64,000 nucleotides of DNA from an uncultured Gemmatimonadales bacterium. Lineage in GTDB: Bacteria; Gemmatimonadota; Gemmatimonadetes; Gemmatimonadales; GWC2-71-9. The first letter of the stretch is position 1. Each line of letters begins with the position of its first letter. A program made the position numbers and the translations under genes. This document shows positions 4,033-12,963 of this stretch, in pieces. The stretch is taken from assembly GCA_963779755.1 (NCBI GenBank), contig CAVZZO010000001.1:128001-192000 (forward strand). Direction: 5' to 3'. The notes under the pieces are model-generated. The model was not told where the DNA came from and ran no database searches. It was given only the letters and a program-made list of their open reading frames with translations.

Positions 4033-4671
4033 TCAGCGCAGCGCCGGTACTCCTCCCAACGACATCAGGGCGGCCGGCTCGCGCAGCACCGGAGGCCGCT
4101 GGGCCGGGAAACCGGCGAGATAGCGATCGGCCGCCCGGGCGCGGGCCCGCTGATAGACCAGATGCGCGGTGGTCAGCGGCAGGGAGAACACCGAGAGGTA
4201 GTGCGCCACCGCCTCTTCAATATCGGTTGAGCCCTCTACCAGGCCGGCGATGTGCAGCGCATTCCGGACGTGCGACTCGGCTACGGCCTCTTCCGCCCGT
4301 GCGCCGGCCAGGCCCATGAGCCGCCGGGTTTCTTCATCCAGCCGCCGGGGAACATGGAACAGCTCGCGCAGGCGTTCCATCCCGGACGCGCCGGGCCGAG
4401 CCGGCGGGGCTCCCAGCTGCCGGTCGTCGAGCGAGGTCAGGACCCGGGTACGCACGAAGTCCTGCATGAGCGGCGGGACCGCAACGAATTCGAAGTAAAA
4501 GTCGAGCGCCTCCAGCGGCGGCACAGCCGACGCGAAGTCTCCCAGGAAGCGGAGCACTTGCTCGGCGTGGGTCACCACCAGCGTTTCCCAGGCCAGGGCA
4601 TAGGCCACCTGAAGACGGGGCCGCAAGGACTCGGGGAACTGCCGCAGGGCCTTCGCACTGAGCATTGTCAT
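4033..4671 (-). CDS. hypothetical protein, internally duplicated helical domain (paralog A)
   Basis: ATG preceded by GGAAGG; clear similarity to the ORF at 12015-12680 (AWExLVxTH, LEAL..Y, GARAEEA...HVxNA). Confidence 0.8.
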   Translation of the reverse strand: MTMLSAKALRQFPESLRPRLQVAYALAWETLVVTHAEQVLRFLGDFASAVPPLEALDFYFEFVAVPPLMQDFVRTRVLTSLDDRQLGAPPARPGASGMERLRELFHVPRRLDEETRRLMGLAGARAEEAVAESHVRNALHIAGLVEGSTDIEEAVAHYLSVFSLPLTTAHLVYQRARARAADRYLAGFPAQRPPVLREPAALMSLGGVPALR

Positions 4672-4727
4672 AGTCCTTCCCTTTCCCGACACGAACGGTC
4701 TGCCGCCAGGTAGCGTGCATCAGGCGA

Positions 4728-4995: not shown

Positions 4996-6084
4996 GTGAC
5001 CACCAGACGGCGGCCTTCGCGCCGTTTCACGAAATCGCCGGCCAGTCCGGCAACGTCAGCCCGCCATGCCGGGCTGCGCTACATGCGCGACGATCGTCCC
5101 GGCATCAGCCGGCGCCGGGCCGGCAGAGGCTTTACCTACCGCGACCGGGAAGGCGCCACGATCAGGGACCACGAGACGCTGGCGCGCATTCGCTCCCTGG
5201 CCGTGCCGCCCGCGTGGACTGATGTCTGGATCTGTCCCGATCCGCGCGGACATCTCCAGGCCACCGGCCGTGACGCGCGCGGTCGCAAACAGTATCGCTA
5301 TCATCCGCGCTGGCGGGAGGTTCGCGAAGAGCACAAGTTCGACCGGCTGCTCGCCTTCGGCGAGGCGCTACCGTCCATCCGCCGCCAGGTGGACCGGGAC
5401 CTGCGCCGCCACACGCTCGACCGGCGCAAGGTCCTCGCCGCTGTAGTCAGCCTGCTGGAACGCACCGGCATCCGCATCGGCAACGACGAATATGCCCGGG
5501 AGAATCATTCCTTCGGCCTGACCACGCTACGCGACCGCCACGTGTCCATTCACGGCGCGGAGATACGATTCGAATTCCGGGGCAAGCGGGGCAAGCCGCA
5601 CCAGGTCGGGCTGCGCAACCGGCGGCTGGCACGCATCGTTCAGGCCTGTCAGGCCATCCCCGGCCAGGAGCTTTTTCAGTACCTGGACGAGAACGACGAG
5701 CGGCAGGCCGTCAGCTCGGAAGACGTCAACGAGTACCTGCGCGATGCTGCCGGCGGCGAATTCACCGCCAAGGACTTCCGGACCTGGGCCGGCACCATGC
5801 TGGGCGCGGCCGCGCTGTACGAGCTGGGCGGGGCCCGCACCAGGGGCGGCGCCAGGGCCCGGATCCTGGAAGCGATTGACCGCGTCGCCGACCGGCTCAA
5901 CAATACCCGCGCCGTCTGCCGCCGGTATTACGTCCATCCCGACCTGCTCCGCGCCTACGAAGAGGGGCGGCTCTGTCCCGCGCTGGATGCCGCCGGCCGC
6001 CGGAACGGAGCCCGGCACGGCCTGCTTCCGCTCGAGTCGACCGTCTGCGAGCTGCTGCGGGGCCGCGCCAGCAAGGCGGCCTGA
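4996..6084 (+). CDS. DNA topoisomerase IB (bacterial, poxvirus-like)
   Basis: GRDARGRKQYRYH, RIGNDEY, FRGKRGK, TAKDFRTW, LNNT...CRRYY catalytic set; GTG at 4996 after GAGGAG. Confidence 0.93.
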   Translation: MTTRRRPSRRFTKSPASPATSARHAGLRYMRDDRPGISRRRAGRGFTYRDREGATIRDHETLARIRSLAVPPAWTDVWICPDPRGHLQATGRDARGRKQYRYHPRWREVREEHKFDRLLAFGEALPSIRRQVDRDLRRHTLDRRKVLAAVVSLLERTGIRIGNDEYARENHSFGLTTLRDRHVSIHGAEIRFEFRGKRGKPHQVGLRNRRLARIVQACQAIPGQELFQYLDENDERQAVSSEDVNEYLRDAAGGEFTAKDFRTWAGTMLGAAALYELGGARTRGGARARILEAIDRVADRLNNTRAVCRRYYVHPDLLRAYEEGRLCPALDAAGRRNGARHGLLPLESTVCELLRGRASKAA

Positions 6085-6137
6085 AACCGCCGGCAATTCC
6101 CCCGGGGCCCCAATGCCTCCACATTAGGAGTCTCCGC

Positions 6138-6830
6138 ATGCCGACCGCGTTCCCGGCAATATTCCCGTCACTCGCTTCGCATTTGCCTGTGGCCGCCCCT
6201 GACAGCACCCGCTCGCGCCGTCTCTCCCGCGTCTTTCTCCTCTCGCCCGCCAGCTGCAGTGGGCGCCGTGCGGGGTGGCTCCTGAACGGCACGGGCACCT
6301 TCGATCTGGCCCGGCAGCTGGCGGCCGGCCGCAGCGCCATGCTGGGGGAAGTCTTCAGTTTCCTGAGCGGCCTCTACTTCCGGGGCAAGCTCGCCTACGC
6401 TCGCCGCTTCGCAGTCCCGCCCGCCGCCTCGGCGGTCCTGGTCATTACCCCCACCCGCGGGCTGCTTCCGCCGGACACTCCGGTGGGGCTGGACGATCTC
6501 CGGGAGTTCGCCGGGGTGGATATCGCCGCCGGCGACCCGCGCTATCGGGTACCGCTGCTGCGCGACGCGCAACGGCTGGCGCGCCGGCTCACCGCGCGCG
6601 GCGAGGCGGTCCTGCTGGGCAGCATCGCCACCGGCAAGTATCTCGACGTGCTGGCGGCGACCCTGGAGCGGCGGCTGCTGTTTCCCGCCGCCTTCGTAGG
6701 CCGGGGTGACATGAGCCGCGGCGGCCTCATGCTGCGTGCCGCGGCGGAGGGGGCCGAGCTGGAATACACTGCAGCGGCGGGGGCCATCCGGCGCGGCGCC
6801 CGTCCCCCCCGGCTGGCACCGCCGCGGTGA
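6138..6830 (+). CDS. hypothetical protein, possibly YaaA/DUF6884-like
   Basis: AGGAG RBS; stop overlaps next start; motif-like blocks FLLSPA, SGLYFRGKLAYA, VITPTRGLLPPD, LLGSIATGKY, GRGDMSRGG. Confidence 0.7.
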   Translation: MPTAFPAIFPSLASHLPVAAPDSTRSRRLSRVFLLSPASCSGRRAGWLLNGTGTFDLARQLAAGRSAMLGEVFSFLSGLYFRGKLAYARRFAVPPAASAVLVITPTRGLLPPDTPVGLDDLREFAGVDIAAGDPRYRVPLLRDAQRLARRLTARGEAVLLGSIATGKYLDVLAATLERRLLFPAAFVGRGDMSRGGLMLRAAAEGAELEYTAAAGAIRRGARPPRLAPPR

Positions 6831-7828
6831 CCCGGTCGCGGACCGGCGGCGGCCGCCATCCCTCGCGGGTGGGACGCACTCGCACGCCCCCGGCGCCGGC
6901 GAGGGCGGAGGCGGAGATCCCCGCCGGCCGCTCGCAGGCAACTCTGCATCTGGACGGGCGGGAGGTCCGGCTCACCAACCTGGACAAGGTCTTCTTCGCC
7001 GACCACGGCCTCACCAAACGTGATCTCCTGCAGTACTACGCCGATGTCGCTCCTGTACTGCTGCCTCATTTGCGCGACCGTCCCATGGTGATGAAGCGCT
7101 ACCCCAACGGGATCGCCGGCAAGTTCTTTTTCATGAAGCGTGCCCCCAGCCCCCGCCCCGCGTGGATCGAGACCTGCAGCATCAAGCACGCGTCAGGCAA
7201 TATCATCGACTTTCCGCTGGTGCAGGATCTCCCGTCGCTGCTCTGGTGCGTCAACCTGGGCTGCATCGACCTCAATCAGTGGTACGCCCGCTGCGATGAC
7301 GTCGACCGGCCCGATTATCTCCACTTCGACCTGGACCCGACCCCCGGCGCCGGCTTCGCCCAGGTGCGGGAGACCGCCCTGCTGGTCCGGGCCACGCTGG
7401 CGGAGCTGGAGATGCCGGTCTACGCCAAGACCACCGGCAGCCGCGGCATGCACGTGTACGTTCCCATCGTCCGCGGACCAACCCAGAAACAGGTCTGGAC
7501 CTTCGCCAAGGCCTTCGCCCGGGCGCTGGCGGAGGGCCACCCCGACCTGGTGACCGCCGTCTACCGGGTGGAGGACCGGCCGGCCTCGCACGTCCTGGTA
7601 GACTACAACCAGAACGCCTGGGGCCGCACGCTGGCATCGGTCTATTCGGTGCGGCCGCGGCCGGGAGCCCCGGTGTCCACGCCGGTCACCTGGGAAGAAG
7701 TGGAGCGCGGCTTCCGTCTGGAGGATTTTCACCTGGGTAACGTGCGCGACCGCCTGAAACGGCGGGGCGATCTCTGGGCGCCGCTCCTGGCGCCGGCGAA
7801 CCGCGTCCGGCTGGATCGCTGGCTCTGA
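6827..7828 (+). CDS. stand-alone AEP primase-polymerase (LigD PolDom / Prim-PolC-like)
   Basis: LTNLDKV, RYPNG...FFMK, FDLDP, KTTGSRGMHV, VDYNQN, SVYSVR. Confidence 0.92.
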   Translation: MTRSRTGGGRHPSRVGRTRTPPAPARAEAEIPAGRSQATLHLDGREVRLTNLDKVFFADHGLTKRDLLQYYADVAPVLLPHLRDRPMVMKRYPNGIAGKFFFMKRAPSPRPAWIETCSIKHASGNIIDFPLVQDLPSLLWCVNLGCIDLNQWYARCDDVDRPDYLHFDLDPTPGAGFAQVRETALLVRATLAELEMPVYAKTTGSRGMHVYVPIVRGPTQKQVWTFAKAFARALAEGHPDLVTAVYRVEDRPASHVLVDYNQNAWGRTLASVYSVRPRPGAPVSTPVTWEEVERGFRLEDFHLGNVRDRLKRRGDLWAPLLAPANRVRLDRWL

Positions 7829-8886
7829 TGCCGGTGGTTGCGTGGCCCCTGGACCCGATGGAAGCCGCCACCGCGGAGGAGCCGCCTCGGGGACCGGGCT
7901 GGGAGTACGAGCCCAAGTGGGACGGCTTTCGTTGCCTGATCTTCAGGGACGGGGAGCGCATCCGGCTGCAGTCCAAAGCAAAACGGCCGCTGGGACGTTA
8001 TTTTCCGGATGTGGTGGATCGCCTCCGGGTATTGCCGGCCCGGCGATTCGTGCTGGATGGAGAGCTGGTGATCCCGGTAGGCAACACCCTCTCCTTCGAC
8101 GAACTCCTGCTTCGCATCCACCCCGCCGCCAGCCGCGTGGCTGCGCTGGCCGCCGAGCACCCGGCGACGTTCATTGCGTTCGATCTTCTGGCCGACCCGG
8201 AACGCGGCTCTCTGCTGGACCAGCCGCTGAGAGAACGGCGCCGCCGGCTGGAGGCCTTTGCCCGCCGGCAGTTCCGCGCCACGCGCGGCCTCCGGCTCTC
8301 GCCGGCCACCACGCGCCTGGCTACCGCCCGGCGCTGGCTGCAGGGCGGCCGGGGTGGCCTGGACGGCATCATCGCGAAACGGCTGGATGCGCCCTATCGC
8401 CCCGGAAGCCGGGACGCGATGATCAAGGTGAAGCGCCTGCGGACGGCCGACTGTGTGGTGGGCGGCTTCCGCTATGCGTCCTCCGGGCATGCGGTGGGTT
8501 CGCTGCTCCTGGGCCTCTATGACGAAACGGGCGTCCTGCACCACGTCGGGTTCACCTCCGGCCTGGCGGCCGCCGAGCGGACCTCTCTGGTAGCGCGCCT
8601 GGAGGCGCTGCAATCGCCCCCCGGGTTTACGGGCCGCGCGCCGGGCGGCCCCAGCCGCTGGAGCCGCGGACGCTCCGCCGAATGGACGCCGCTCGCACCG
8701 GAACTGGTGTGCGAGGTCGAATACGACCACGTGAGCGGCGGCCGCTTCCGCCACGGCACCCGGTTTCTCCGCTGGCGCCCGGACAAGGCGCCGCACCAGT
8801 GTACGCTCGAGCAGATCCGGCAGAGCGGCGCTTCGGCGCTCCGGCTCCTGCGATCCTCGCGTTCCCGTCTCAAGGGCAAGGCATGA
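7828..8886 (+). CDS. ligC: ATP-dependent DNA ligase, LigC-type
   Basis: EPKWDGFR adenylation motif, [40 protein letters not shown]. Confidence 0.88.
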
Positions 8887-9305
8887 CGACACCGCCGCCA
8901 TTTCATCTCGCATTTCCGGTCCACGACCTGGCGGAAGCCCGGGCGTTCTACGGCGGGATGCTGGGCTGCCGTGAGGGCCGAAGCAGCGAGCACTGGGTAG
9001 ACTTTGACCTGTGGGGGCATCAGATCGTGGCGCATCTCGCGCCGGAGGCCGCCGGCCGGCGGGCCGGCAATCCGGTGGATGGCGACGACGTCCCCGTCCC
9101 CCACTTCGGGCTCATCCTCCCCTGGGAGGAGTGGGAAGCGCTGGCCGGGCGGCTGCGCCAGGCCGGCGCCCGGTTCGTGATCGAGCCGCGCATCCGTTTT
9201 CGCGGCCTGCCGGGCGAGCAGGGCACCCTGTTCGTGCTCGACCCGTCGGGCAATGCACTCGAATTCAAATCCTTCCGAGACATGACTCAGGTATTCGCAC
9301 AATGA
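8883..9305 (+). CDS. VOC/glyoxalase family protein
   Basis: [34 protein letters not shown] overlap with the ligase stop. Confidence 0.88.
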
Positions 9306-10630
9306 GACGGCGCCCACGTGGACGTCCCGGCCGGCGGCCGGGTGGCGGCAGGGGCGGGAATCAGGGCGGCAACAGCAGCAGCGGCGGCGGGGGGAGCGGC
9401 GGCCGGGGAAATGGCCGGCCGCCGCGCGAGCGGCGCCACCGGCCCTCCGGCGAAAGCGGGCCCCCGCGCGGCGAGCCGGTCGAGGCGATCGGCGTGCTGG
9501 ACTACGCCGAACGGGAAGGCGGCTTCCTGCGCCGGCGGGAAGTGAGCTATCTGCCCGAAAGCAACGACGTCCGGGTCGACCAGGGGTTGATTCAGCGCCT
9601 CCGCCTGCGGCCGGGCGACGAGATCGTCGGCCGGGCGGTGCAGCCGCAGGGCCGCGGCCGGGCGGCGGTGCTCACCGAGGTGGAGACCGTCAACGGGCAG
9701 GAGCCCGAGGCGATGGCCCGCCGTCCCGATTTCAACCGCCTGGCCGCGGTCCATCCCACCGAGCAGCTGATCCTGGATTTCGGGCTGACCCGCAACGGGC
9801 AGCGGGACTTCACCAACCGGGTGATCGACCTGCTGGCGCCGCTGGGCAAGGGTCAGCGGGCCCTGATCGTCGCGCCGGCCAAGGCGGGCAAGACCATGGT
9901 CCTCCAGGCCATGGCCCAGGGGCTGGGTCGTAACCATCCGGAGACCCGGGTCATGATTCTGCTGGTGGATGAGCGACCGGAGGAAGTGACCGAGATGGAA
10001 GCCTGCGGCTACGGCGAAGTGGTCGCCTCCAGTTTCGATCACCCGGCGGAGCGGCACGTGGCGGTGGCGGAAATCGTCCTGGAACGCGCCCGGCGGCGGG
10101 TGGAACAGGGAGAGGACGTCGTGGTGATCCTCGACTCCATCACCCGGCTGGCCCGGGCCTACAACACGGTCGAGCGCGGCACCGGGCGCACCCTGACGGG
10201 CGGCCTGGACGCGTCGTCGCTGGAAAAGCCCAAGCGGTTCCTGGGCAGCGCCCGCTGCATCGACCCGGCGCAAGGCGGCGGCTCGCTCACCATCATCGGC
10301 ACGGCGCTGGTGGATACCGGGTCCAAGATGGACCAGGTGATCTTCGAGGAGTTCAAGGGCACCGGCAACAGCGAGCTGGTGCTGAGCCGCGAGCTGGCCG
10401 ACCGGCGGATCTTCCCGGCCATCGATCTCAACGCCAGCGCCACGCGCCGCGAAGAGCTGCTGCTCTCGCCCGAGGCGCTGGAAGATTCCCGCGCCGTGCG
10501 ACACACCCTTTCGGGCCTCTCTCCGGTGGAGGCGATGTCCACGCTCATGACGCTCATGCGCCGGACGGAATCCAACGCCGAGCTGGCCAAGGCGCTGCGG
10601 CCCTCCGGGGGCTCGCGCTCCTCGCGATGA
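9302..10630 (+). CDS. rho: transcription termination factor Rho, atypical, with RG-rich N-terminus
   Basis: [14 protein letters not shown]-loop, [37 protein letters not shown] at 9302 overlaps the upstream stop. Confidence 0.92.
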
Positions 10631-11352
10631 CCCGGCGGCTTCTGCTGCTCAGCAATTCGGTCAACGAAGGCGCCGGCTACCTGGAGCACGCGCTCCCCCA
10701 GGTGGCGGAATTGCTGCGCGGCGTGTCCCGCCTGACCTTCGTGCCCTGGGCGGCCGTCACGATCAGCAACGACGAATACACCGATCGGGTGCGCTCGGCG
10801 CTCGCGCCGCTGGGCGTCACGGTCGAGCCGTTGCATCAGGCGGACGACCCGGCCCGGGCCATCGCCGATGCCGAGGCGATCGCGGTGGGCGGCGGCAACA
10901 CCTTCCACCTGCTGGCCGCGCTGCAGCAGCGGAGCCTGCTGGAGCCGGTGCGCCGGCGCGTGGCCGGGGGGGTGCCCTATGTCGGCTGGAGCGCCGGTTC
11001 TAACATGGCATGCCCCACCATCCGGACCACCAACGACATGCCGGTGGTGGAGGTGGACGGATTCGGCGCGCTGGACCTGGTGCCGTTTCAGATCAATCCG
11101 CACTACACCGACGCCCGGCTACCCAACCATCATGGAGAAACCCGGCCGCAGCGCCTGCTGGAGTTTCTGGCGGCGAACCCCGGCACCACGGTGATCGGGC
11201 TGCGCGAAGGCAGCATGCTCAAGGTGGAAGGCCAGGCCATGTGGCTCCTGGGCCCCCGTCCCGCCACCATCTTCCGCGCCGGCATGCCCCCGGCCGACCA
11301 GGCGCCCGGCGCACGGCTGGACGCGCTGCTCAACGCCGCCCGCGCCGACTGA
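10627..11352 (+). CDS. pepE: dipeptidase E (peptidase S51)
   Basis: LLLSNS, VGGGNTF, GWSAG nucleophile, TIRTTNDMP, QINPHY, HHGETR. Confidence 0.93.
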   Translation: MTRRLLLLSNSVNEGAGYLEHALPQVAELLRGVSRLTFVPWAAVTISNDEYTDRVRSALAPLGVTVEPLHQADDPARAIADAEAIAVGGGNTFHLLAALQQRSLLEPVRRRVAGGVPYVGWSAGSNMACPTIRTTNDMPVVEVDGFGALDLVPFQINPHYTDARLPNHHGETRPQRLLEFLAANPGTTVIGLREGSMLKVEGQAMWLLGPRPATIFRAGMPPADQAPGARLDALLNAARAD

Positions 11353-11379: not shown

Positions 11380-11970
11380 ATGACCGAACGGACTCTGCAC
11401 AGCGTTTGTGTGTTCTGCGGATCGCAGGCGGGCGGACGGCCCGCCTACGTCGAAGGCGCCCGGCGGCTGGGCGAGTTGCTGGCCCGGGAAGGCATCCGGA
11501 TCGTCTACGGCGGCTCCAGCCTGGGGCTCATGGGGGCGCTGGCGAACGCGGCGCTGGACCAGGGGGGCACGGTGACCGGGATCATTCCCACCGGGCTGGT
11601 TCAGCGGGAGGTGGCGAACGACCGGGTGTCCGATCTGATCGTGGTCGGCTCGATGCACGAGAGGAAGACCCAGATGTCGGAACTGGCCGACGGGTTCATC
11701 GCCCTGCCGGGCGGCCTGGGCACGCTGGAGGAATTCTTCGAGATCCTGACGTGGGCGCAGCTTGGCATTCACGACAAACCCTGCGGGCTGCTCAATCTGG
11801 AGGGATACTTCGAACCGCTGATTGCGTTCCTCGATCGGGCCATGGCGGAGAAGTTTCTTCTCCCCAGGTACCGCGCGCTGCTGCTGCAGGAGAGCGACCC
11901 GGGAGCCCTGCTCGGGCGGATGCGCAGCTACGAGCCGCCCGAGGTGGAGAAGTGGCAGAGCCGGACCTGA
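11380..11970 (+). CDS. LOG family nucleotide monophosphate phosphoribohydrolase
   Basis: VCVFCGS, VYGG, MHERK, PGGLGTLEE. Confidence 0.92.
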   Translation: MTERTLHSVCVFCGSQAGGRPAYVEGARRLGELLAREGIRIVYGGSSLGLMGALANAALDQGGTVTGIIPTGLVQREVANDRVSDLIVVGSMHERKTQMSELADGFIALPGGLGTLEEFFEILTWAQLGIHDKPCGLLNLEGYFEPLIAFLDRAMAEKFLLPRYRALLLQESDPGALLGRMRSYEPPEVEKWQSRT

Positions 11971-12014: not shown

Positions 12015-12680
12015 TCACGCGTTACGTGGCACCGTTCCATCGGTTGTTCCGTCCCAGCCTTCGAGTTCCTCTCTCGCCGGTAATACCTCCCGTGTGTACT
12101 GCGCCGCCAGCTGCTCGCCCGCCACCAGCGCCTGCACCCGCCGGTAGACCGCGTGGCCCACGGCCAGCGGGAGAGTGAACTCGCGGATGTAATAGGCCGC
12201 GACCTTCTCCGCCGGCATGGTGCCGTGCAACAGGCGCACCAGGCGCATCGCGTTGCTCACGTGGGTCTGCAGAATGGCTTCCTCGGCCCGAGCGCCTACC
12301 AGCCGGGCCAGCTGCAGGGTCGTCTCCCGGTGCTCCCGGCGCCGGCGTCCCACGGTGTAGATCCGGTGGGGGAGCAGGAAATCGAACCCGCTCAGCACCG
12401 GCTGGGGAATCCGCGCCGGCAGGCAGGCGAGGTCAATACCCAGCAAGGTCCGGCTCCGCACGACCTCGCGCATGGTATCGGGCACCGCACCCACCCGGAG
12501 GTACAACTCCAGGGCCTCCAGCACGGTGATCCGGCTGGCAAATTCCTGGATGAAGGGCACCGCCTGAGAGCTGTGGGTGTCCACCAGCGCCTCCCAGGCG
12601 CTGGCCAGAGCAATCCTGGCCTGCGTCCGCAGGATGCGCGGAACTTCCCGCACCGACATGCGGCTGGGAAACGGAGCCAT
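12015..12680 (-). CDS. hypothetical protein, internally duplicated helical domain (paralog B)
   Basis: Similar over its length to 4033-4671; start chosen by alignment with paralog A. Confidence 0.8.
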   Translation of the reverse strand: MAPFPSRMSVREVPRILRTQARIALASAWEALVDTHSSQAVPFIQEFASRITVLEALELYLRVGAVPDTMREVVRSRTLLGIDLACLPARIPQPVLSGFDFLLPHRIYTVGRRRREHRETTLQLARLVGARAEEAILQTHVSNAMRLVRLLHGTMPAEKVAAYYIREFTLPLAVGHAVYRRVQALVAGEQLAAQYTREVLPAREELEGWDGTTDGTVPRNA

Positions 12681-12963
12681 GAGTGATGTCCTGCGAGTGC
12701 AGAGTATTGCTCTTGGACTTCGATTTATACACGCCTTCAACATTAGAGCGGCGTGACCACTCCTAAACTATGTGTCGGCCACGGCAACGCAACACTAAAG
12801 AATTCGTACAGATGTTGATAAAAACTGCGGGGTGGCCGCAGCCGCTTGCCGCGACGGGGTTTAGGGAGATGGAAAATGACCGATAATTTGACACTTCAGG
12901 AACTGCCATCCCGTCTCCGCGCCGGCCCAGGGGGCCCGGAGGGTCGCGCTCGGGCGAGGCGCG

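Follow-up and report, generated by a model that had tools for sequence, protein, structure and literature searches.

An unnamed basic protein family beside LigD-type polymerase and LigC-type ligase genes in a Gemmatimonadales bacterium, with a possible role in gap and nick repair

The cassette and its neighbouring genes

The locus described here lies in a stretch of 64,000 nucleotides (the window) from an uncultured Gemmatimonadales bacterium (assembly GCA_963779755.1, contig CAVZZO010000001.1, positions 128,001 to 192,000; genome G000). A first-pass annotation had described four co-oriented genes as a Ku-less DNA repair module, namely a DNA topoisomerase IB (TopIB), an unknown open reading frame (ORF2), a LigD-type primase-polymerase (Prim-Pol) and a LigC-type ligase, the last three joined by overlapping stop and start codons. 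All four frames are present in the sequence (Table 1), and the overlaps were found as GTGA at 6827-6830 between ORF2 and Prim-Pol and as TGATG at 7826-7830 between Prim-Pol and LigC. This overlapping run, however, does not end at position 8886. ATGA overlaps carry the chain past LigC into a VOC-family gene, a second rho paralogue and a peptidase S51 gene, so that overlaps alone fail to delimit a four-gene module. The cassette proper consists of three genes, encoding the unnamed ORF2, the Prim-Pol and LigC.

ORF2 is separated from the topIB gene by 53 nucleotides, carries an AGGAG element 7 nucleotides before its ATG and has a third-position GC content of 0.85, similar to its neighbours. A sigma-70 scan returned a single weak site inside topIB (5876-5904; 9/12, with 0.4 expected), and no terminator-like site was found in the same scan of the gene run.

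The polymerase, whose start codon is uncertain, stands alone beside a core-only ATP ligase of two domains, in which a KWDG motif places the adenylation lysine at K30. This arrangement resembles the mycobacterial LigC/Prim-PolC pair, in which, according to the accessible part of the source, a stand-alone Prim-Pol adjoins a LigC that is reduced to its core and lies away from the Ku-LigD locus, and short gaps are filled with ribonucleotides and then sealed (PMC5663958). The comparison with Prim-PolC drawn in the first-pass annotation is borne out in this respect but not at the C-terminus. The Prim-Pol aligns to 6sa0 up to residue 320 of its 333, versus 291 of 350, and 13 residues remain after the aligned core. 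An identity as Prim-PolC was ruled out, since the C-terminal extension with Loop 3 (residues 294-336) is missing.

Table 1. Genes of the co-oriented run and conserved motifs of ORF2, in window coordinates
Feature	Position	Strand	Matches and remarks
TopIB, bacterial (Deinococcus-type) DNA topoisomerase IB	4996-6084	+	PF01028 E 8e-36, PF21338 E 9e-27
ORF2, 230 amino acids, unnamed basic family	6138-6830	+	no Pfam or NCBIfam match at E<=0.1
ORF2 motif FLLSPA	6234-6251		
ORF2 motif SGLYFRGK	6366-6389		
ORF2 motif ITPTRG	6444-6461		
ORF2 motif LLGSIATGKY	6612-6641		
ORF2 motif GRGDMSRG	6699-6722		
Stand-alone LigD-type Prim-Pol	6827-7828	+	PF21686 E 2e-88; TIGR02778 over cut-off
LigC-type minimal ATP-dependent DNA ligase	7828-8886	+	PF01068, PF04679; PRK08224 452.9 bits, cut-off 296
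Glyoxalase/VOC-family gene	8883-9305	+	PF00903 E 3e-9; overlaps ligase stop
rho, second paralogue	9302-10630	+	PRK09376 over cut-off; overlaps VOC stop
Peptidase S51 gene	10627-11352	+	ATGA overlap with rho
LOG-family gene	11380-11970		after the peptidase S51 gene

The ORF2 family and its genomic partners

The family to which ORF2 belongs is large. Clustering at 90% identity gives at least 8000 clusters, every one of the 8000 candidates scored having passed, and at 50% identity there are 1510 representatives. Searches found members in 39 of 201 own-phylum genomes and in 14 of 151 genomes of another phylum. The titles of records with ORF2 name Verrucomicrobiota, Acidobacteriota, Rokubacteria/Methylomirabilota, Planctomycetota and Gemmatimonadales. 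Pfam, NCBIfam and PHROGs hold no family for the ORF2 domain itself, the Atlas gave unnamed clusters only, and sequence and profile searches against solved structures returned nothing below E 0.04. No description of the family was found in the literature, as judged by titles and the starts of abstracts in mainly open-access sources without supplements, and the accessible parts of PMC10140301 and PMC8632793 do not mention it.

The conserved core of ORF2 begins at about position 6222. Thirty-two residues precede the first motif, compared to a median of 4 in 119 close homologues, and the initial 28 probably form an extension specific to the lineage. The proteins are basic, with net charges from +3 to +18 among 41 members and a median isoelectric point of 10.1. 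Conservation falls on basic, hydroxyl and glycine residues, including invariant serine, tyrosine, arginine and lysine; the conserved basic positions are R20, R58, K60, K143 and R170 (numbered from window position 6210). No histidine or cysteine is conserved at 80% or more among 75 diverse members, and just two acidic residues are (83% and 85%).

The neighbourhoods of ORF2 homologues were compared in four sets of loci: the best 80 of 469 GTDB matches, 38 own-phylum genomes, the best 80 of 542 metagenome matches (198 loci up to this point) and 11 of 14 matches from the other phylum, giving 209. The three matches left out of the last set were one already counted, a contig-end fragment and one unpublished. 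A gene for a polymerase, ligase, phosphoesterase (PE), Ku, PolX or PNK-type kinase is present at 64/80, 21/38, 42/80 and 4/11 loci, respectively. Partners lie within 500 nucleotides of ORF2 at 123 of the 209 loci (polymerase 60, ligase 50, kinase 12, PE 4, PolX 3). These counts are not independent, because two loci occur in two sets, Verrucomicrobiota provide most of the GTDB loci and the metagenome query was a kinase-joined relative that favours kinase neighbours. The linkage of ORF2 homologues to Prim-Pol and LigC across phyla was nonetheless what the neighbourhood analysis proposed in the first-pass annotation brought out. The VOC gene is found beside ORF2 homologues in 0/198 loci.

Gene order varies. 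ORF2-LigC, ORF2-Pol-LigC, PolX-ORF2-Pol-LigC and Pol-LigC-ORF2-kinase arrangements were observed, and a second Prim-Pol/LigC clade of 43-48% identity lies beside ORF2 in three arrangements (L145, L150, L151, L154). Such diversity of sequence and order points to repeated recruitment. PE genes are found beside ORF2 in 10 of the 38 own-phylum loci. Within one genus (g3), an ExoIII-family gene is co-oriented upstream of ORF2 in six of seven loci (L140, L143, L146, L147, L148, L153), within about 50 nucleotides in three, with no ligase nearby; no match to this gene was obtained in G000 by tblastn at E 1e-5.

Co-occurrence was assessed in the 201 own-phylum genomes, 39 with and 162 without ORF2. LigC is encoded in 31/39 ORF2 genomes compared to 9/162 others, and the Prim-Pol clade of the window in 15/39 compared to 2/162; leaving out one genome flagged as unpublished (G157), the values for ORF2-less genomes become 8/161 and 1/161. 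The association of LigC persists within the taxonomic family (26/32 with ORF2, 2/64 without) and by genus (14 of 19 ORF2 genera). Fisher P values are tiny and overstate the co-occurrence, because related genomes are not independent.

Gene fusions form a small minority of the ORF2 family. The best 120 of 206 longer records comprised 47 kinase-ORF2, 36 ORF2-kinase, 14 ORF2-GNAT, 5 ORF2-Pol, 3 PolX-ORF2, 2 ORF2-ligase and 13 other. The only fusion confirmed at the DNA level joins ORF2 and Prim-Pol in one open frame (genome G095). Mammalian PNKP is the best match of the joined kinase (E 1e-12), which retains its Walker A motif in 83/83 records; it matches the kinase domain of PNKP only, and ORF2 has no match to the phosphatase domain. 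As true fusions, the three PolX records and one ligase join (P0216) were rejected, since they resemble frameshift artefacts, and they were counted as adjacency only. At several loci (L215, L217, L223, L226, L248, L251, L267 and others), a PNKP-type kinase gene that stands alone overlaps the ORF2 homologue at its end, by about 16 nucleotides in six.

Taken together, the sequence comparisons indicate that the ORF2 family is real and widespread, has no name and likely serves as an accessory at repair loci with LigC and Prim-Pol. Several observations weigh against this assignment. At 86 of the 209 loci no listed partner lies within 500 nucleotides, though many of the contigs are short, and Verrucomicrobiota account for 48 of the 80 GTDB loci, as judged by record titles. 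Nine genomes carry LigC but no member of the ORF2 family. The kinase joins occur in protein records only, the 12 of 12 loci read at the DNA level having separate overlapping or adjacent genes, and the C-terminal GNAT acetyltransferase of 14/120 longer relatives (P0152, P0284, P0296 and others) has no evident link to repair.

TopIB, on which the headline of the first-pass annotation was based, turned out to be a neighbour. The protein is apparently intact. Its best solved relative is 2f4q (E 1e-62), and R160, K197, R262, N303 and Y312, which we take to be the catalytic R-K-R-N-Y set, are all present. TopIB is found near ORF2 in 0/80, 0/38, 1/80 and 0/11 loci (1/209 in total), the sole case lying on the opposite strand, 1.8 kilobases off and with PolX between. 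Synteny of all four genes was found in 0/209 related loci; ORF2, Prim-Pol and LigC are syntenic in relatives, and TopIB is not. Conversely, at 24 TopIB loci of other genomes, no ORF2, polymerase or ligase gene was present within 1.5 kilobases.

The proposal that the four gene products jointly resolve trapped TopIB-DNA adducts is thus largely refuted by synteny and appears very improbable. The co-orientation, the 53-nucleotide gap and the lack of a terminator-like site are in its favour, as is the presence of TopIB in 23/39 ORF2 genomes, where it lies elsewhere in the genome except here. TopIB-type breaks also need a 5'-kinase. Against it, no PNK-type kinase was found in G000 by tblastn, and 16/39 ORF2 genomes have no TopIB match. 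A literature search combining TopIB, bacteria and LigD found nothing.

At two of the 24 other TopIB loci, TopIB lies directly downstream of a second rho paralogue (G108, L316 3972-6039; G033, L317 253-2504), and in G108 TopIB is also next to a homologue of the window gene at 4033-4692. The same rho paralogue and 4033-4692 genes surround the cassette in the window. TopIB is likely a chance neighbour of ORF2 that results from a rearrangement; most simply, the cassette would have come to lie inside a topIB-rho neighbourhood.

The absence of Ku and PE from the window was confirmed, every match to either falling outside it. A Ku-less organism was ruled out, as G000 (97% complete) has two Ku genes; the label given in the first-pass annotation did not survive a genome-wide search, which returned 2 Ku, 2 PE, 3 Prim-Pol, 3 ATP-ligase and 2 TopIB matches. 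Two further ligase/polymerase loci exist in G000 besides the cassette. At the first (contig C3, L319 3286-7709), LigD is split into a PE-ligase gene and an overlapping but separate gene for Prim-Pol, both divergent from Ku, and a MerR-type helix-turn-helix plus tetratricopeptide repeat gene lies downstream of Ku. At the other (contig C1, about 1653600-1657070; L318 2615-6072), a run of PE, ligase and Prim-Pol diverges from the gene for an Fpg-family glycosylase, and this forms a second link of base excision with ATP-ligase repair in this genome. Neither a ligase nor a polymerase is near the second Ku gene. PolX is present in G000, and the second TopIB copy lies on C3.

These loci bear on the idea that the cassette serves non-homologous end joining (NHEJ) as a reserve arm, using Ku from elsewhere and ORF2 as an accessory. 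Ku-LigD NHEJ employs homologous polymerase and ligase domains; the cassette lacks Ku and PE, which are encoded at other loci of G000. One Ku gene without ligase or polymerase nearby, a Prim-Pol without Loop 3, like the polymerases of NHEJ, and a top solved relative labelled as an NHEJ polymerase would all fit. The idea is nevertheless improbable, given that Ku occurs in 2/198 ORF2 loci only, that the neighbours seen repeatedly (PolX, PNKP-type kinase, ExoIII) act on gaps and nicks, and that a separate Ku-LigD locus exists.

Predicted fold and distant relatives of ORF2

A structural model of ORF2 was obtained with a predicted local distance difference test score (pLDDT) of 87 and a predicted template modelling score (pTM) of 0.86. 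Compared to the PDB with Foldseek, its top match was Escherichia coli YaaA (5CAJ; E 0.010, probability 0.82, template modelling (TM) score 0.38, 13-14% identity). The top four matches in BFVD were YaaA or DUF6884 models (probability 1.00, E 8.5e-4 to 3e-3, TM 0.43-0.51), followed from rank 8 by unrelated rows of probability <=0.18. VIA placed chains 2q07, 4j1s and YaaA first, with Z scores of 5.1-5.4 that are weak when taken alone. A true DUF6884 protein used as a control likewise had YaaA as its top Foldseek match (E 0.022), and VIA returned these three chains for it as well (Z 9.1, 8.1 and 6.0).

Profile comparison led to the same group. A profile of 75 ORF2 sequences matched one of 23 DUF6884 sequences (89%, P 2e-6, score 43.8), collinear over 110 columns, compared to scores of at most 18.1 for 40 column shuffles and 11.4 for a Prim-Pol profile. 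The match between DUF6884 and YaaA is comparable (86%, 42.9, P 5e-6). The alpha/beta core shared by the YaaA/DUF6884 'cantaloupe' superfamily is present in the predicted model of ORF2. No match to PF21818 was found in ORF2 and 87 relatives at E<=1, nor was the cut-off of PF03883 reached. ORF2 is therefore likely a distant third branch of the YaaA/DUF6884 fold, since the model and the profile match that fold without membership of either Pfam family.

Some results weaken this placement. The VIA Z score to YaaA is 5.1 (149 residues aligned, root mean square deviation 4.6) compared to 9.1 for the DUF6884 control; the ORF2 profile reached only P 0.055 against 14 YaaA sequences and a probability of 0.2% against the single E. 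coli YaaA sequence; and the Atlas gave no named cluster.

DUF6884 (PF21818), which includes Bacillus subtilis YfjM and phage proteins, resembles ORF2 in predicted fold, order of secondary structure elements and basic character, and the ITPxxG motif of ORF2 aligns with LSAxxG. The CxxxK motif given for DUF6884 in the accessible part of PMC11701544 is absent from ORF2, which has SPAxxxGxR at the matching place. ORF2 is also about 60 residues longer, with a helical insert and GRGDMSRG and RxGxRPP elements. The two differ in context, ORF2 being linked to LigC/Prim-Pol, whereas two of seven phage DUF6884 regions (L337, L338) adjoin DpdA or queuine tRNA-ribosyltransferase genes.

E. coli YaaA (DUF328/UPF0246, PF03883) has the SPA start motif in common with ORF2, and further collinear stretches are GSIATxKY/NLASxEY and GRGDMSR/KARGLMSR (ORF2/YaaA). 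Unlike ORF2, YaaA is not linked to a ligase in those parts of the published accounts that were available. Four divergent YaaA-family proteins (L181-L184) have CPLLG in place of LSGLYG and have lost the KKARG motif.

According to the portions of the literature at hand, YaaA has a basic cleft and binds duplex DNA (PMC4834066, PMC8843374) without sequence preference, and it protects from peroxide, mitomycin C and ultraviolet (UV) light (PMC8843374, PMC10055390). The same holds for the reports that DUF6884 shares the YaaA fold and may, as its Pfam authors suggest, have an active site (PMC11701544), and that YfjM, one of its members, was enriched in pull-downs on DNA with abasic or ribonucleotide lesions (PMC10220248, Table 1).

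A possible role in gap and nick repair

ORF2 is very probably a repair accessory of some kind. The best explanation for the locus, in which we place about even confidence, is that the three-gene cassette repairs single-strand gaps and nicks, with ORF2 binding the damaged site or gap for Prim-Pol and LigC. A glycosylase or apurinic/apyrimidinic (AP) endonuclease would first open the lesion, and ORF2 would then grip an abasic site, a short gap or a ribonucleotide-containing nick via its conserved arginine, lysine, serine and tyrosine residues. Gap filling by the polymerase, probably with ribonucleotides, would be followed by sealing by LigC. In other lineages, end cleaning would come from the kinase, phosphoesterase, PolX or ExoIII encoded next to ORF2. 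The base-excision-type neighbours of ORF2 relatives resemble mycobacterial LigC/Prim-PolC excision repair, from which the cassette differs by lacking Loop 3 and by an extra conserved gene of predicted YaaA fold that is unmentioned in the accessible part of PMC5663958.

The first-pass annotation had cast the unknown gene as a missing end-processing or DNA-binding component, which agrees with the predicted fold and the neighbours; the role itself is a prediction. Binding is favoured over catalysis because conservation falls on basic, hydroxyl and glycine residues, with no histidine or cysteine and two partly conserved acids. Whether ORF2 acts by non-catalytic binding of a lesion or gap is, in our estimate, evenly poised. 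Two points count against the proposed binding role: the high conservation of serine, tyrosine, lysine and arginine would suit an active site equally, and the polymerase lacks Loop 3, an element linked to gap preference. One may speculate that ORF2 supplies gap recognition in place of Loop 3, against which stands its occurrence with LigC alone. A complex prediction for ORF2 and Prim-Pol scored 0.00, which is evidence in neither direction.

An end-cleaning enzyme of the same pathway is an unlikely but serious alternative. Such an enzyme would remove AMP from 5'-adenylated LigC nicks, a 5'-deoxyribose phosphate or a 3' phosphate. LigC is the tightest genome-level partner of ORF2, and LigC enzymes accumulate DNA-adenylate in vitro, as stated in the accessible part of PMC1920237. 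Furthermore, ORF2 is paired with a PNKP-like kinase that has no phosphatase partner, its invariant serine, tyrosine, arginine and lysine could make a pocket, and an active site has been suggested for DUF6884 (PMC11701544, seen in part). On the other side, the conserved residues include no histidine or cysteine and two acids only, the cysteine of the DUF6884 CxxxK motif is missing, and the portions of PMC4834066 and PMC8843374 at hand report no catalytic activity for YaaA. PE, which supplies 3'-phosphatase activity according to the same part of PMC1920237, is already encoded beside ORF2 in a quarter of the own-phylum loci. Somewhat less likely still is the specific form of this idea in which ORF2 is a new enzyme, for instance a bacterial counterpart of aprataxin that strips AMP from dead-end LigC nicks or the missing phosphatase-like half of a split bacterial PNKP. 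If it were true, a YaaA-fold enzyme would belong to a eukaryote-like line of single-strand break repair in soil bacteria, alongside a kinase, PolX or Prim-Pol and an ATP ligase, and this would be the first catalytic activity for the fold.

The DNA-binding and protective properties of YaaA would also agree with ORF2 being a stress protein that protects DNA in general and whose clustering with repair genes reflects shared regulation only. YaaA exceeded its cut-off in 0/201 genomes of the phylum, so that ORF2 could replace it, and many ORF2 loci have unrelated neighbours. This possibility is quite improbable, as the in-frame fusion with Prim-Pol and the matching presence and absence of LigC would be more specific than shared regulation usually is.

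Under the gap- and nick-binding explanation, the ORF2 branch brings named partners and candidate substrates to a fold whose members have been tied to oxidative and DNA damage in the accessible literature, and a three-protein reconstitution can therefore address the role of the YaaA fold directly. For LigC-type repair in abundant soil phyla it suggests an accessory factor that the available parts of the mycobacterial papers do not mention.

Two minor features of the surroundings may be added. Further Rho matches lie on contig C3 of G000. The gene run of the window is flanked by two minus-strand genes (4033-4692 and 12015-12743), whose products have no convincing Pfam or NCBIfam family and are paralogues of each other, with 38% identity over the match.

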